From: Chitinophagales bacterium
GTDB taxonomy: Bacteria > Bacteroidota > Bacteroidia > Chitinophagales > Chitinophagaceae
Direction of reading: 5' to 3'
Assembly (NCBI GenBank): GCA_038249665.1
Contig: JBBSDF010000006.1
Coordinates: forward strand, 17,685 to 81,684
Length of the DNA: 64,000 nucleotides
This document shows, in pieces, positions 9,437 through 12,960 of the stretch. The notes beneath the pieces are model-generated. The model was given only the letters and a program-made list of their open reading frames with translations. It ran no database searches and was not told the DNA's origin. Position numbers and translations under genes: made by a program. Each line of letters opens with the position of its first letter. The first letter of the stretch is position 1.

Positions 9437-10000
9437 AGAAGTTGATTGATAGAGATTAAATATCAATCATTGTCCAAAGATCCTAATTAACCCAAAAAGT
9501 GTTTTCCAATATCCAACTAAGAAAAGCTGTAAAATTCAATATCAGTCAACTTCTACTTTTAAAAAGATACATATCGATCATATTTTATCCCTTTGAAAAA
9601 CCAATAAATCAATATCCTGCTTATGCTCTAACAGGCGACGATAGCACCCGTTTTGAAATCCAGTATTTTGAAAAAATCCTTATCCGGTACACAACGAAAA
9701 CCAACCAAAACCAACATCCACATGCCTATGCTGCCAATACAGCGATGATGGCGAAACAAAGAACAACTCAAATCCTGTAAAAGACCAAAAAACCAAGCCA
9801 ATTATCCTACAGCCTATGCTGCCAACCACAGCGATGATGGCAAAGACCGTTTAAACTGAAACCAGGACACATTATTTGCGCCAGCCATAGCTGGTAAAGC
9901 GAAACCAAATCCTGAAAAGCCGATTGCTAACATCAACAATTGGTAAAATTGTAAACTTCCACAGCCTCTTTGCAACAGCAAATTCCTGTGGAAGTTTTTT
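9437..10000 (+). ncRNA. Paralogous structured ncRNA, unit A (about 564 nt)
   Basis: Starts AGAAGTTGATTGATA, complementary to TATCAGTCAACTTCT 9540-9554; three stem-loop modules; CTGAAACCAGGA 3' domain at 9856; ends in a terminator; no conserved ORF. Confidence 0.7.
9953..10000 (+). terminator. Terminator of unit A
   Basis: aaacttccacag/ctgtggaagttt stem plus T-run. Confidence 0.8.
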
Positions 10001-10152
10001 ATAAACGCATTTTTTAAATCAGTTGTTAGCTATTTAACGAATGTAGTCGCATTTCCTACTACAAAATCACGATTACATTCACGACAGATAAATAGCCAAA
10101 ATTCACTAAGAGATTTGCTGATTGTCCTATTTTTTAAGATAATTATACAACC

Positions 10153-10160
10153 CATCTTTG
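10153..10160 (+). promoter_or_regulatory. -7 box of ncRNA unit B
   Basis: CATCTTTG 3 bp before AGAAGTTG, as in the other units. Confidence 0.5.
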
Positions 10161-10163
10161 CAT

Positions 10164-10490
10164 AGAAGTTGAAGAGTATTAACCATCATTAAAATCTTGC
10201 CGGATTGTTATTAGATTCCCAAAAATGAATATTATTAAATGAAGCCCGTTTAAATTCAAATTCTATGAAAACCAAAGGTTTGTATCTCCTTCAACTTCTT
10301 TAATAGTAAAAATTTAAAAATAATATAGTCTTTCAAATTTTGGCGCTAACGCCGCTATCTATTTCATTGCAACGATTTAGATCTTAACCAAGTATTTCGT
10401 CTGAAACCGATAAAACACAAAACATCACCCTCCCTACAAACAATTGGCTTCCGCAGTTTCTGCCACAACAGAAATTGCGGATTTTTTTTT
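10164..10490 (+). ncRNA. Divergent paralogous ncRNA, unit B (about 327 nt)
   Basis: AGAAGTTGAAG 10164-10174 perfectly complementary to CTTCAACTTCT 10289-10299; CTGAAACC at 10401; terminator 10450-10490. Confidence 0.55.
10450..10490 (+). terminator. Terminator of unit B
   Basis: tccgcagtttctg/cagaaattgcgga 13-bp stem (one G-U) plus 9 T. Confidence 0.85.
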
Positions 10491-10813
10491 CGAATTTTAA
10501 CGTTTTACTCAGGATCAATTTCTTAATTGAATTTTTATACTCAATCTGTCCGTTTATTTCAATTAACGAATTGAATCGGATTCACATCAACCTTTCAAAC
10601 TCCATTTTATTTTTGGGATAAAGATTTAAAATATTTGTTGAATGGCAATGTGCGGCCCTTATAGTTGAAAAGAAAGGGTTAGAGAGTTTGCTGGCAAAAA
10701 CAGAGCTGAGTTAACAGTTATAAACCCTTTTGTAGTTATTAATGGAACCAACAATCGATAAAAAAAACTCAATTAATCACCATCCGACTATAAGCTGGGG
10801 ATACTGCGTGTTT

Positions 10814-10821
10814 TATCTTTG
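10814..10821 (+). promoter_or_regulatory. -7 box of ncRNA unit C
   Basis: Canonical TATCTTTG 4 bp before AGAAGTTGATTGATA; no TTG at the 20-bp spacing. Confidence 0.6.
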
Positions 10822-10825
10822 TGGT

Positions 10826-11208
10826 AGAAGTTGATTGATAGAGAAGATATCAATCATTGTCCAAAAATCCTGATAAAACCGGTCAAGTTTTTCCAATATC
10901 CAAACTAAGAAAAGCCGTAAAATTCAATATCAGTCAACTTCTACTTTTAAAATGTAAAAGAAATACAATGACGAAAACAACGCTAACCTATCAAAACGAT
11001 CTTATATAAATTTTTCTAGATCATTAAAACCATTTTAATCGGATGGTCTTGCAAACGAACCTTACATCCAATACCTTAAAACCAATCTTTTATCCATCAT
11101 CCTTTTAGTACGCCATCTACGATGTCGTATTGTTGAAAATCCATTTAAAACCAACCACGAGTTGGACAAAACTGAACAAAACCGTCCTCTTCTGAAGGGC
11201 GGTTTTTT
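10826..11208 (+). ncRNA. Paralogous structured ncRNA, unit C (about 383 nt)
   Basis: Same 5' domain (10826-10840 pairs with 10928-10942), several short hairpins in A/C-rich linkers, terminator 11178-11208. Confidence 0.65.
11178..11208 (+). terminator. Terminator of unit C
   Basis: aaaaccgtcct/agggcggtttt stem (one G-U) plus T-run. Confidence 0.8.
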
Positions 11209-11416
11209 ATACAGAATAGGTTTTATAAAATACCAGGTTGATGATTTGGGTAACATACAATACCCATCAAATCAAATATTATCAATAAGTATTCGTGGGT
11301 ATCATTAGTCCAACTTTACTGCAAGGTAATTTTACCTTTGGCGTGATAAGCAGTGTTTCAAAGCCTTTCAGTACTAATTTATTAAATTCAACCTTGTTAA
11401 ATTAAGCCTTCACCAT

Positions 11417-11551
11417 CGTATTTCTACGTAATAAATTTAAGGGGTTTTATCATTAAAACCATGCAGATAGTACGATGTCGGCAGTAATTACTTCATTACA
11501 ATAATTTAGCAATATTGCTCTTGTGCGGCATTTAAAAGCACCGCATCTTTG
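11417..11551 (+). promoter_or_regulatory. Promoter of ncRNA unit D with conserved upstream elements
   Basis: CGTA-N4-TACG 11417-11428; TACGA-N6-CAGTAATT 11471-11489; TTG 11521-11523; 20-bp spacer; CATCTTTG 11544-11551. Confidence 0.7.
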
Positions 11552-11728
11552 TATCAGAAGTTGATTGATAAAGACAATATCAATCATAGAATATCCAAAC
11601 ATCCAGAAAAAGCCAAACGTTTCTACAATATCCTAAATAACAGAAAGACCGTTTAAAATTCAATATCAGTCAACTTCTACTTTTTAAAAAAATAATAGAA
11701 TATCCAAATATCCAGGAGAAGAACTAAA

Positions 11729-11925
11729 ACCAATATCCGACCTATGCTGTAAGAAGCGATGATGGTCAAAAACCAACTGATCCAAATCCTACAAAAGACA
11801 AAAAACCAATATCCCGACTTATGCTATAAAAAGCGATGATGGTCAAAAACCAGGAAGGTCCAAATCCTACAGCGGACAAAAAACCAATATCCGACTTATG
11901 CTGTTAAAAGCGATGATAGTCAAAC
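11729..11925 (+). repeat. Three imperfect tandem repeats, period 76-78 bp, within unit D
   Basis: ACCAATATCC(C)GAC(C/T)TATGCT-N-AAGCGATGAT(G/A)GTCAAA starts at 11729, 11805 and 11883. Confidence 0.85.
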
Positions 11926-12184
11926 AAAAGCCAACGAATATCCAAACATCCAACACATCTGCGTTGTCCAATACAGCAAAGATGGAAAACCAAAACACGG
12001 TCTGCAGAAGGCCACCCGTAGATTTCCTTTATCCTAAAGCCTATGCTGCCTACCACCAGCGATGATGGCGAAAAACGAAACACTGAAACCAGGAACAACT
12101 CATTTACTGCAGAGTTTTACTCTGAATAGTAAAATCTGATCCTGAAAAACCGACAACTAGTGTTTAAGTTGGTTCAAAGCATTC

Positions 12185-12230
12185 ACTTCCACAGCAGGTA
12201 CTTCAAAATACCAACGTTGTGGAAGTTTTT
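12185..12230 (+). terminator. Terminator of unit D
   Basis: acttccacagc/gttgtggaagt stem (one G-U) plus T-run. Confidence 0.8.
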
Positions 12231-12380
12231 ATTGTAGGGTGATAGATGGTATAACCATTACATATTTAAAGATCATCATCAGATGCTACTGAAAATTTAC
12301 GTTTTTCACCAAAGGCAAGGCTATAAAGCGTTGTACCCTGTTTTTTAGGCTCAAAACTACCCTCCTCAAAACAAATGCAG

Positions 12381-12515
12381 CGTATATTTACGTGTCCTAT
12401 TTGAGTAGCACTACGCCACAAAAAACAGTTGATATACGATGCGGGCAGTAATTACTTCATCCTGAAAAAAGAGCAAATTCGCGCTTGTTTACTTTTAAAA
12501 AGCATTGCATCTTTG
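12381..12515 (+). promoter_or_regulatory. Promoter of ncRNA unit E with conserved upstream elements
   Basis: CGTA-N4-TACG 12381-12392; TACGA-N6-CAGTAATT 12435-12453; TTG 12485-12487; 20-bp spacer; CATCTTTG 12508-12515. Confidence 0.7.
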
Positions 12516-12519
12516 TGTC

Positions 12520-12960
12520 AGAAGTTGATTGATAGAGATTAAATATCAATCATCGTCCAAAATCCTGATAAACCAAAAAAAGTGCTTCCAATATCCCAAA
12601 CCGTAGGTTAGAAAGCCATTAAAATTCAATATCAGTCAACTTCTACTTTTTTAAAAAACAATACCAATATCCAATAGAAAGTGACCATTGACCAATATCC
12701 TTTAAAAAACGAAAAGTTAGAAACCAATATCTAATTAAACCGAACCGATCCAATCCAATCCTTACAGAAGACCAACGACCAATATCCAATTAAACCAAAC
12801 AGCATTCTTACCCTTCGTAAAATGAATCTGAAACCAGGAACAACTTATTTACTGTACTGAGCCCCCTCAGCAATAAAAAATTCCTGAAATGCGGCAGTGG
12901 CCGCAAAAAACATCAACTTCCACAGTAGGTTTGCGCGGCAAATTTCTGTGGAAGTTTTTT
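12520..12960 (+). ncRNA. Paralogous structured ncRNA, unit E (about 441 nt)
   Basis: 5' domain 12520-12534 pairs with 12630-12644; AATATCC-rich middle; CTGAAACCAGGA at 12828; terminator 12915-12960. Confidence 0.7.
12915..12960 (+). terminator. Terminator of unit E
   Basis: aacttccacag/ctgtggaagtt stem plus T-run; insulates the downstream gene. Confidence 0.8.

Follow-up and report, generated by a model that had tools for sequence, protein, structure and literature searches.

A conserved 5′ domain in tandem small-RNA genes of Chitinophagaceae looks more like a folding pathway that seals the 5′ end than a transcription terminator

The window analysed here (the whole 64,000-nt stretch of DNA) contains, at positions 9200-12990, a gap without open reading frames that is occupied by five units, A to E, all on one strand, each with a Bacteroidota-type promoter and a GC-rich terminator of its own (Table 1). 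The −7 box, CATCTTTG, is invariant in the five units and has the same letters in 90 of 111 homologous copies from metagenomes; we take TAnnTTTG to be the Bacteroidota −7 element. The four nucleotides between this box and AGAAG are variable, and conservation of the RNA starts precisely at AGAAG. Units A-E are small-RNA (sRNA) genes and belong to a multicopy, highly expressed family of Chitinophagaceae bacteria. This family appears to be undescribed: the covariance models of Rfam 15, run on window positions 8500-13500 (both strands, E up to 1), gave no family match, the only two matches being at chance level and far under the gathering scores, and our literature search found no paper describing the family.

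Table 1. Positions of the sRNA units and their sequence features in the window.
Feature	Position	Strand	Remark
Five-unit sRNA array	9437..12961	+	promoter and terminator per unit
Unit A	9437..10000	+	
Unit B	10164..10490	+	
Unit C	10826..11207	+	
Unit D	11556..12231	+	
Unit E	12520..12961	+	
Exact AGAAGTTGATTGATA (start positions)	9437, 10826, 11556, 12520		
Exact TATCAGTCAACTTCT (start positions)	9540, 10928, 11664, 12630		
Unit A promoter, −7 box CATCTTTG	9425..9432	+	predicted start A9437, 4 nt downstream
Unit A 5′ arm AGAAGUUGAUUGAUA, nt 1-15	9437..9451	+	nt 1-6 toehold; nt 7-15 common to both pairings
Unit A local arm UAUCAAUCA	9461..9469	+	partner of nt 7-15; 9 bp, 9-nt loop
Unit A distal arm UAUCAGUCAACUUCU	9540..9554	+	15-bp helix with nt 1-15
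Unit A U-run (ACUUUUAAAAA)	9557..9560	+	
Unit A canonical terminator, CUUCCACAG...CUGUGGAAG + U6	9956..10000	+	
Unit B 5′ arm AGAAGUUGAAGAGUAU	10164..10179	+	divergent paralogue without local hairpin
Unit B distal arm GUAUCUCCUUCAACUUCU	10282..10299	+	bulged pairing with B 5′ arm; no U-run after it
Unit C 5′ arm	10826..10840	+	
Unit C local arm UAUCAAUCA	10848..10856	+	7-nt loop
Unit C distal arm, AC and U-run	10928..10948	+	arm 10928-10942; U-run 10945-10948
Unit D 5′ arm	11556..11570	+	
Unit D local arm UAUCAAUCA	11578..11586	+	7-nt loop
Unit D distal arm, AC and U-run	11664..11685	+	arm 11664-11678; U-run 11681-11685
Unit E 5′ arm	12520..12534	+	
Unit E local arm UAUCAAUCA	12544..12552	+	9-nt loop
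Unit E distal arm, AC and U-run	12630..12652	+	arm 12630-12644; U-run 12647-12652

In units A, C, D and E, nucleotides (nt) 1-15 can enter either a 9-bp local hairpin or, with UAUCAGUCAACUUCU some 90 nt further downstream as partner, a 15-bp helix. Two competing partners for the 5′ end had been proposed in an earlier note on this DNA, and exact sequence matches place the arms of all four units where that note had put them, nt 7-15 being available to the local or the distal partner in a mutually exclusive way. The local partner, TATCAATC, is found 7-9 nt downstream as claimed. The note was right about the hairpin itself but not about its size, which it had given as 8 bp with 7 nt left free: U7 also pairs with the A after UAUCAAUC, which brings the hairpin to 9 bp and leaves a free 5′ tail of 6 nt (AGAAGU). 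The sequence bears out its description of a 15-bp distal helix with one G-U pair, followed by AC(U)4-6 and A, and of a loop of about 90 nt, A/C-rich and carrying AAUAUCC. The helix has four G-C pairs, the G-U pair is U10-G, and the stem base is AGAAG/CUUCU; the tails after the distal arm read ACUUUUAAAAA, ACUUUUAAAA, ACUUUUUAAAAAAA and ACUUUUUUAAAAAA in A, C, D and E respectively; and the loops between the arms are 87-95 nt long, with 62-70% A+C, 9-13% G and AATATCC (as DNA) once or twice in each. Allowing up to three mismatches, the arms have 12 matches against 2-3.5 expected, a number that none of 100 shuffles reached. Unit B (10164-10490), absent from the list in the earlier note, lacks the local hairpin, the AUCC motif and the U-run; its long-range helix is kept (AGAAGUUGAAG.AG.UAU with 10282-10299), with compensating replacements at arm positions 10-15 on both sides.

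Homologues were collected from genome assemblies (79 distinct copies) and from metagenomes (111), about 190 together, mostly from Ferruginibacter and other Chitinophagaceae, and both pairings are almost unaltered among them. In the genome set, 99.3% of the cells of the distal helix and 97.0% of those of the local hairpin are paired. The metagenome search left nt 1-5 and the distal arm free and hence carries no bias at those positions; of its 111 copies, 109 have the toehold AGAAGU (nt 1-6), complementary to ACUUCU, the last six bases of the distal arm, 107 have an unaltered distal arm, and 108 form 15 of 15 pairs. The pairing scheme of the 5′ domain is real, strongly conserved and beyond chance. 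The earlier note had made its scheme depend on the local hairpin being conserved in homologues, and both pairings are indeed kept.

The rare variants of the arms are compensated. In L025:763-880(-), AGAGAAAUUGAUUGAU pairs with AUCAAUCAAUUUCUCU, the fifth pair has changed from G-C to A-U, and the helix is 2 nt longer, so that its start remains 4 nt downstream of CATCTTTG. L087:1603 has U in place of A15, compensated by a U-to-G change in both the local and the distal partner; a second copy, L087:2046, has the U-to-G change in the local partner only. Since covariation is otherwise nearly nil, sequence-specific roles of the arms (as a protein site, a seed or the initial transcribed sequence) are inseparable from pairing. 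The local loop can be as short as 5 nt or as long as about 16 nt, a variability that suits an RNA hairpin rather than a protein operator, and the entire 5′ domain spans 89-136 nt. The wobble G of the final helix is kept in 107 of the 111 metagenome copies, whereas the local hairpin is entirely Watson-Crick; selection for a weak intermediate would be expected to produce the reverse, which hints that the local state may be functional itself.

All energies given here are nearest-neighbour predictions. The minimum free energy (MFE) structure of the nascent 5′ end is the 9-bp local hairpin (about −8.5 kcal/mol), while in the complete 5′ domain the distal state is predicted to be more stable than the local one by 5.8 ± 1.6 kcal/mol (n = 79 homologues). 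The distal helix is the MFE structure in all five 5′ domains of the array (z = −2.6 to −4.7), and its pair probability in full-length A, C, D and E is 0.93-1.0 (0.86-1.0 for the pairs of the distal arm in unit A). When prefixes of 190 sequences were folded with a 14-nt polymerase footprint, the local hairpin was still the MFE structure in 185-186 of them with the RNA 3′ end 4-6 nt past the distal arm, and the distal helix took over at +10 (164/190) and +12 (185/190). The toehold complement is the final piece of the distal arm to exit the polymerase, and the exchange is not favourable until the polymerase has moved about 8-10 nt beyond that arm. These predicted energies point to a one-way sequential fold in which the local hairpin precedes the distal helix. 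They agree with the earlier proposal that the local hairpin, the earliest structure able to form, folds first, that the free 5′ tail (nt 1-6, left unpaired by the hairpin) is able to act as a toehold, and that the distal helix then displaces the hairpin as the stable end state.

The distal helix is followed within 10 nt by a run of at least four U in 95 of the 111 metagenome copies (86%), far above chance. The run usually consists of 4-6 U preceded by a 1-2-nt spacer and followed by A's, and is missing in about 14% of the copies; in an intrinsic terminator, a U-rich stretch of about 7-9 nt adjoins the stem directly. Downstream of the 5′ domain lies a non-coding body with a canonical terminator of its own. 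Among the 79 homologous units (median length 488 nt, range 190-1100 nt), 73 have a canonical GC-rich hairpin with a T-run 150-550 nt downstream, and most of the six in which none was seen run off the stored sequence. In L094 and L096, which have no body, a linker of 56-59 nt connects the distal arm of the 5′ domain to a canonical terminator. Further, in at least four metatranscriptomes of lake or freshwater origin, RNA contigs extend across the U-run (X26 record 2, 346 nt at depth 511, and X26 records 1 and 4; X30 record 7; X31 records 10, 12 and 13; X28 record 17; X23 record 7); these contigs come from relatives (80-95% identical), and their ends reflect branching of the assembly graph rather than RNA ends.

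The bodies contain 5-12 copies of the motif AUCC, 4-5 times the expectation, and the inter-arm loop, which contains conserved AUCC blocks, has little structure apart from one variable hairpin. In being long sRNAs built of a repeated short motif, with several paralogues per genome and high expression, the units resemble CsrB/RsmZ (GGA) and CrcZ (A-rich motifs). They differ from these in the motif, which here lies in A/C-rich single strands and has no known binding protein, and the closed 5′ domain is without counterpart in them.

A parallel to the folding order may be found in the signal recognition particle (SRP) RNA. Wong, Sosnick and Pan are said to have reported in 2007 that in SRP RNA, RNase P and tmRNA the upstream strand of long-range helices is kept sequestered by non-native structures stabilised by pausing. 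E. coli SRP RNA forms a non-native hairpin at its 5′ end, which toehold-mediated strand displacement undoes once the 3′ strand appears (10.1101/379222). As in that RNA, an early 5′ hairpin ties up the upstream strand of a helix that is completed by a partner about 100 nt downstream, the late 3′ strand nucleates on unpaired bases and exchanges pair by pair, and the 5′ end is joined to a distal segment in the end state; the predicted folding of the 5′ domain contains the early sequestering hairpin, the unpaired complementary bases and the more stable native state. Unlike in SRP RNA, the toehold is a free 5′ tail rather than a hairpin loop, the helix closes the 5′ domain only, with a U-run and a long body after it, and it is the final helix, not the intermediate, that contains the wobble pair. 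The two RNAs have no sequence or family relation (no Rfam match). The end state also recalls the 5′-terminal stem-loops, such as that of the ompA 5′ UTR, that stabilise bacterial RNAs against 5′-end-dependent decay: the helix begins at most one nucleotide from the 5′ end, and the longer helix of L025:763-880 still begins at the predicted +1. Unlike those stem-loops, it is long-range (arms about 100 nt apart) rather than local, and its stabilising effect is putative.

The best explanation, to which we assign a probability of roughly one half, is a two-step fold in which a transient hairpin gives way by toehold exchange to a helix that closes the domain from nucleotide +1. Once nt 7-33 have left the polymerase, the all-Watson-Crick 9-bp hairpin would form at once and park the upstream strand of the long-range helix, also while the polymerase crosses the U-run; being parked, this strand would not mispair with the many later stretches containing UAUC or AUCC. 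The final seven bases of the distal strand (AACUUCU) would, on emerging, pair with the free 5′ end, and branch migration would swap the hairpin for a 15-bp helix starting at the first transcribed nucleotide. The result would be a closed 5′ domain whose 5′ end, held in a helix, may be protected from 5′-end-dependent nucleases, and whose A/C-rich loop may display AUCC/CCAAUAUCC motifs to some protein or RNA. The polymerase would continue past the U-run into the variable, motif-rich body and stop at the GC-rich terminator of the unit. The domain thus looks more like a guided folding pathway sealing the 5′ end than a transcription terminator, with the U-run probably acting as a single-stranded hinge, pause or nuclease site rather than as the main terminator. 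For a role in folding or sealing only, a conserved U-run would be superfluous. Computation and comparison establish the two helices, the order in which they form, the end state, the terminators downstream and the read-through in relatives, whereas the purpose of the fold (to guide folding, seal the 5′ end and display motifs) and the part played by the U-run are inferred.

The earlier note had read the same features as a terminator-like helix within a self-sensing attenuator, and neither claim found support. In a regulated attenuator, the distal helix and U-run would end part of the transcripts at about 125 nt, the local hairpin would be the anti-terminator, and a factor on the loop or on CCAAUAUC, which overlaps the distal arm, would set read-through into the body. 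As in terminator-antiterminator attenuators and riboswitch platforms, one strand is common to two exclusive helices, and a U-run comes right after one of them, 0-2 nt from the helix in the 86% of copies noted above. The thermodynamic flip coincides with a polymerase at the far edge of the U-run, the distal arm lies inside a copy of the body motif (UCCAAUAUC joined to AGUC), and a Watson-Crick local hairpin set against a wobble-bearing distal helix suggests tuned states. Even the long loop is not prohibitive in principle, as annealing of an RNA in trans to the downstream arm can reportedly release transcripts at a U-tract (Yarnell and Roberts, in 1999, are credited with this). However, the distal helix has neither the G/C-rich stem (about 5-14 bp) nor the short loop (about 3-10 nt) of intrinsic terminators; its loop is about 88 nt, only 4 of its 15 pairs are G-C, and its stem base is A/U-rich. 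Its short U-run is set off by a spacer, whereas the real terminators of the family have G/C-rich stems followed directly by U5-9. With the polymerase on the U-run, the top 9 bp would have to form at the expense of the −8.5 kcal/mol hairpin and without the help of a toehold. The region is not the leader of a coding gene, nor is the U-run a sole terminator before a controlled gene: each unit has a separate canonical terminator, present even in body-less units, the RNA of relatives reads through, and the U-run is missing in some copies. Nor is any aptamer, ligand or binding protein known for the units that would bias the choice between the helices, as the sensor of an attenuator or riboswitch (a ligand aptamer, a protein or tRNA site, or a leader peptide) does. 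We regard an attenuator as unlikely, though the conservation of the U-run counts in its favour.

Somewhat less likely again is a processing signal, in which an RNase E/G-type cut in the A/U-rich linker (A-N-UUU), or an RNase III cut in the helix, would part a 5′ domain of about 120 nt from the body. RNase E in enterobacteria is reported to prefer RN↓WUU, and the tails of about 74% of the copies, which begin A-N-U-U-U, fit this preference. The U-run directly adjoins a stable helix, and the occurrence of the 5′ domain alone in L094 and L096 indicates a self-standing module. On the other hand, RNA contigs span the linker site, and a 15-bp helix is short for RNase III.

A more elaborate form of the attenuator, which we consider improbable, would make the 5′ domain the gate of a sponge RNA gauging its own ligand, in a homeostatic scheme based on strand displacement. 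If so, a factor recognising CCAAUAUC/AUCC would attach to the loop as it is transcribed and to the copy of the motif at the distal arm, hold the local hairpin, block the closing helix beside the U-run, and so set whether polymerase or nuclease allows the transcript to extend into a body with 5-12 more copies of the same motif. Such an attenuator would operate in a phylum that is generally without CsrA and Hfq (PMC13370968).

Rather improbable, too, is a caged seed, in which the invariant 5′ end (AGAAGUUGAUUGAUA) would pair with other RNAs and would be masked until needed by internal mimics, the local and distal arms. Conservation of the 5′ 15-mer exceeds the needs of pairing, with nt 1-6 free of covariation in the 111 unbiased copies, and multicopy sRNAs of Bacteroidota, FopS among them, typically have a conserved seed at the 5′ end (PMC11697453). 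FopS and GibS of Bacteroides thetaiotaomicron are 65-70 nt long, with a single-stranded 5′ seed and dispersed genes (PMC11697453). Like them, our units are multicopy paralogues in Bacteroidota with canonical promoters of the sigma-A type, a Rho-independent terminator and an invariant 5′ end, but they are 190-1100 nt long, often tandem, and have a paired 5′ end and AUCC-array bodies; the Rfam search gave no sequence similarity, and the units do not belong to that family. The seed is moreover predicted to be paired in the mature RNA (probability above 0.9), the distal arm is just as invariant, and the 64-kb window holds no convincing target elsewhere, only matches with three mismatches.

Lastly, although 15-bp inverted repeats flank a segment of about 90 bp with a promoter just upstream, a DNA-level element (the ends of a MITE-like or invertible segment, or an operator of a dimeric regulator) is close to refuted, as the orientation is constant in all of the about 190 copies (GATTG arm on the promoter side, CAGTC arm distal), the fixed promoter distance is at odds with mobile insertion, the two halves of the local inverted repeat lie anywhere from 5 to 16 nt apart, and the interior is strand-asymmetric (A/C-rich) and transcribed.

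The five tandem sRNA genes, units A-E, occupy a gap with no ORF longer than 93 aa (window 9200-12990), flanked by a gene for a PALP+CBS enzyme and one for a periplasmic-binding protein, with a class-II aldolase gene and accD lying farther out (see the table below). An invariant CATCTTTG box, which we take to be the Bacteroidota -7 element TAnnTTTG, precedes every unit and is followed by 3-4 variable bases and then AGAAGTTGA, and the 3' end of each unit is a G/C-rich hairpin with a T-run. Because conservation between the units begins exactly at AGAAG, its first A is the likely transcription start. 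In the first ~120 nt of a unit (the 5' domain), nt 1-15 (the 5' arm) have two possible partners, namely a nearby local arm (UAUCAAUCA in units A and E) and a distal arm about 90 nt downstream, which forms a 15-bp helix with one G-U pair and is followed by AC and a U-run. The earlier note had described this arrangement in units A, C, D and E, and its coordinates and sequence details are all correct. The local hairpin it recognized is real but comprises 9 rather than 8 bp, as U7 pairs too, and therefore leaves a free tail (the toehold) of 6 rather than 7 nt. Unit B, left off that list, has the same promoter box, first 9 nt and last 9 nt of the distal arm as the other units, and retains the long-range helix with a different sequence at positions 10-15. 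Its interior is unrelated, its terminator is different, and the local hairpin, AUCC motif and U-run are missing. It is a divergent paralogue that escapes detection by nhmmer and did not turn up in the loci of other species.

Features of the sRNA locus, with positions in the window
Feature	Position	Strand	Remark
PALP+CBS enzyme gene	7845-9200		left neighbour of the sRNA gap
Unit A	9437-10000	+	
Unit B	10164-10490	+	
Unit C	10826-11207	+	
Unit D	11556-12231	+	
Unit E	12520-12961	+	
Periplasmic-binding-protein gene	12889-13788		right neighbour of the sRNA gap
Conserved upstream regions	9350-9436, 11470-11555, 12435-12519		units A, D and E
Body hairpin module copies	9605-9649, 9720-9760, 9805-9849, 11726-11770, 11803-11847, 11880-11924, 12035-12077		
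Conserved terminators	9956-10000, 12186-12231, 12919-12961		
Metatranscriptome matches	9455-9565, 11790-11916, 12044-12170		runs X25, X26, X28, X29

A scan of one genome per species with the pattern CATCTTTG-N3-4-AGAAGTTGA returned at least 120 loci; among the matches listed, about 66 loci contain true copies, nearly all in Ferruginibacter, Chitinophagaceae or Chitinophagales assemblies, with the cultured Ferruginibacter sp. HRS2-29 (locus L073) among the carriers, and the rest are chance matches in coding DNA. The scan yielded at least 79 distinct 5' domains (alignment A2), in which the 15-mer 5' arm is identical in 66/79 and the distal arm in 71/79. The earlier note had made its reading depend on the local pairing being kept in homologues, and across these 79 domains 97.0% of the local pair cells are indeed paired, as are 99.3% of the distal ones. 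Since the genome pattern itself fixes nt 1-9, metagenomes were scanned with a pattern fixing only nt 6-15, the local arm and the first AUCC block. Among the 111 distinct copies obtained, 109 have AGAAGU at nt 1-6, the distal arm is unchanged in 107, and all 15 pairs are present in 108. The domain interior is far less conserved than the arms, which are therefore under a constraint of their own.

The sRNA family is new, and its folding mechanism is of a known kind. Rfam gave no match at permissive thresholds, and full-text literature searches found no description of this family, which is multicopy and occupies a conserved genomic site in many Chitinophagaceae. The array is syntenic, lying downstream of the PALP+CBS gene (76-83% identical) in at least 10 loci with a varying number of units, and the metagenome contig L151 matches window 7000-15000 over 8 kb with 98.8% identity. 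Comparison of that interval with L151, L170, L099, L153, L092, L174, L061, L059, L154, L131, L152 and L210 showed that the number and type of units at this site differ even among fairly close relatives; in L099, for example, an A-like unit is directly followed by an E-like unit. An nhmmer search of the window using a profile of the 79 sequences turned up no additional copies, and when all family loci were scanned for any -7 box with a 5' end pairing 50-170 nt downstream, the matches comprised only the known type, unit B, a variant in locus L025 and chance matches in coding DNA. A AGAAGTTGATTGTTG match at 29481-29495 (13/15 to the 5' arm) has neither promoter box nor distal partner and was dismissed as chance; window 29300-29700 holds no ORF of 80 aa or more. 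RNAs of relatives are abundant in lake/freshwater metatranscriptomes; in run X26, contig depths go up to several hundred, the word depth being 511 for one 5'-domain contig and as much as ~776 across body repeats. Only single-unit queries found these runs, and the whole 3.8-kb gap as query returned nothing.

The proposal of the earlier note that the local hairpin forms first and is later displaced by the distal helix through the toehold is well supported by computation and comparison. The nascent 5'-end hairpin is predicted at about -8.5 kcal/mol, while in the complete domain the distal-helix ensemble is predicted to lie 5.8 +/- 1.6 kcal/mol below the hairpin ensemble, with distal pair probabilities of 0.93-1.0 in full-length A, C, D and E. 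Growing transcripts of 190 sequences were folded with 14 nt hidden in the polymerase, and the MFE state was recorded for each 3'-end position past the distal arm. At +4 to +6 the local hairpin is the MFE state in 185-186 of the 190 sequences and the distal helix in none; the respective numbers are 159 and 27 at +8, 25 and 164 at +10, and 4 and 185 at +12. The flip thus falls at the far edge of the U-run or just beyond, and it is late because of the geometry, since the distal arm exposes the toehold complement AACUUCU last. Equilibrium bistability is ruled out, the distal state being favoured by ~6 kcal/mol, and the domain is accordingly a sequential fold rather than a bistable switch, unless the hairpin is kept in place by some factor. 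Its nearest known parallel is the E. coli SRP RNA, in which a non-native 5' hairpin is rearranged by toehold-mediated strand displacement (10.1101/379222).

As the arms hardly vary, covariation statistics are uninformative (two double changes per helix; RNAalifold covariation term -0.09). The few variants do carry information. In L025:763-880(-) the G5-C pair has become A-U and the helix is two pairs longer (AGAGAAAUUGAUUGAU with AUCAAUCAAUUUCUCU), so that it again starts 4 nt after CATCTTTG. In L087:1603, A15 has changed to U and both the local and the distal partner from U to G, with three further wobble-compatible changes in the distal arm; in a second copy (L087:2046) the local partner alone is changed. 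In unit B, both sides carry other bases at arm positions 10-15, and all remaining arm changes are G-U-compatible. The local loop varies from 5 to about 16 nt, which is compatible with an RNA hairpin and speaks against the operator of a dimeric protein. Since nt 7-15 have two partners, any mutation there needs two compensating changes, and this accounts for much of their invariance. For the invariance of nt 1-6 a further cause is required, possibly that they serve as the initial transcribed sequence of a strong promoter, or that their sequence is specifically recognized.

The distal helix and U-run had also been read as a regulated terminator or attenuator that ends transcripts. Selection on the U-run is clear, 95/111 copies having 4 or more U within 10 nt; the U-run also comes directly after the helix, and the flip point lies at its edge. 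Moreover, annealing in trans to a downstream arm can release transcripts. The terminator or attenuator reading is possible but unsupported. The helix closes a loop of ~88 nt with only 4 G-C pairs out of 15, and its U-run is usually 4-6 nt long after a 1-2-nt spacer, whereas the true terminators of the family have a G/C-rich stem with U5-9 directly after it. Such a canonical terminator lies downstream in 73/79 homologous units (median unit 488 nt), most of the other six running off the stored sequence. Even two members without the variable, AUCC-rich body (L094:1196-1392 and L096:5052-5245, about 195 nt in total) carry one after a linker of 56-59 nt past the distal arm, which makes the 5' domain a self-standing module. 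Metatranscriptome contigs of relatives (80-95% identical, lake/freshwater) span the arm and U-run into the body (X26 record 2, 346 nt, depth 511; X26 records 1 and 4; X30 record 7; X31 records 10, 12 and 13; X28 record 17; X23 record 7). The contigs end in the conserved arms, points at which paralogues make the assembly graph branch, and their ends are therefore uninformative on RNA ends; a short species of ~125 nt is thus hypothetical. For termination, moreover, the top 9 bp would have to replace the hairpin in the absence of a toehold and with the polymerase still on the U-run. Two features keep the idea of a switch alive, namely the conserved G-U wobble in the final helix, in contrast to an all-Watson-Crick hairpin, and the overlap of the distal arm with a copy of the body motif (UCCAAUAUC followed by AGUC).

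We favour a guided folding pathway as the most likely role of the 5' domain. The hairpin would park the upstream strand while the AUCC/UAUC-rich loop is synthesized and the polymerase passes the U-run, and toehold exchange would then close the domain by a helix, burying nucleotide +1 and displaying the motifs of the loop. The U-run would be a hinge, a pause site or a nuclease site. A processing signal, a caged seed and a DNA-level element are the other rivals to guided folding. Constant orientation and variable spacing rule out inverton, MITE and operator readings, and a dCas12f guide RNA is likewise ruled out, those tandem Bacteroidota RNAs being 85-105 nt long and located beside dcas12f/rpoE, genes that do not occur nearby here.

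Well-studied Bacteroidota lack, to our knowledge, the common RNA chaperones Hfq and CsrA, which is why post-transcriptional control in Bacteroidota is poorly understood. The 5' domain is an unusually clean natural design for three-strand exchange (toehold, incumbent strand and invader), frozen in about 190 distinct copies, and we know of few natural toehold-mediated RNA rearrangements, SRP RNA being the model case. If the exchange is regulated, it would represent a new attenuator type and a route to the putative factor reading the AUCC motifs; if it is a folding pathway only, it would remain valuable for testing cotranscriptional folding by comparison.

A and C predominate in the bodies (A+C about 0.6, G about 0.15), where ATCC is 4-5 times commoner than composition predicts. 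In shape, the family is like the protein-titrating sRNAs CsrB and CrcZ, the binder here being putative. Several bodies, including those of units A and D, carry a repeated module of CCAAUAUCC followed by a small hairpin whose internal loop is asymmetric and conserved (GCC-UAU-GCUG ... CAGC-GAUGAU-GGC) and whose stems covary among copies (GACC/GGUC versus GCC/GGC); the same module occurs in metatranscriptome contigs of relatives. A K-turn reading was rejected on inspection, as the positions expected to form tandem G-A pairs are A and U.

In 195 homologous promoters, the 140 nt before the start also show conserved blocks at fixed positions. One is a palindrome, GTAATTAC, between about -70 and -63, and another is the inverted repeat AAGAGC-N6-GCTCTT between about -50 and -32, which overlaps the -33 region; farther upstream than both, TTTACGA/CGTAA recurs. 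These blocks are probably sites of a shared transcription factor. The resemblance of UAUCAAUCAUUAUC to a Fur box was rejected, since the copies in the window itself do not retain it. Sequence conservation extends to the terminators (CUUCCACAG...CUGUGGAAG-U5-6), and the 3' arm ends in RGRAG and a T-run in 109/151 homologous units (72%). Their arms mirror the toehold helix (AACUUCC resembling AACUUCU, and GGAAGUU resembling AGAAGUU), which makes an alternative pairing of the 5' end with the upstream arm of the terminator conceivable.
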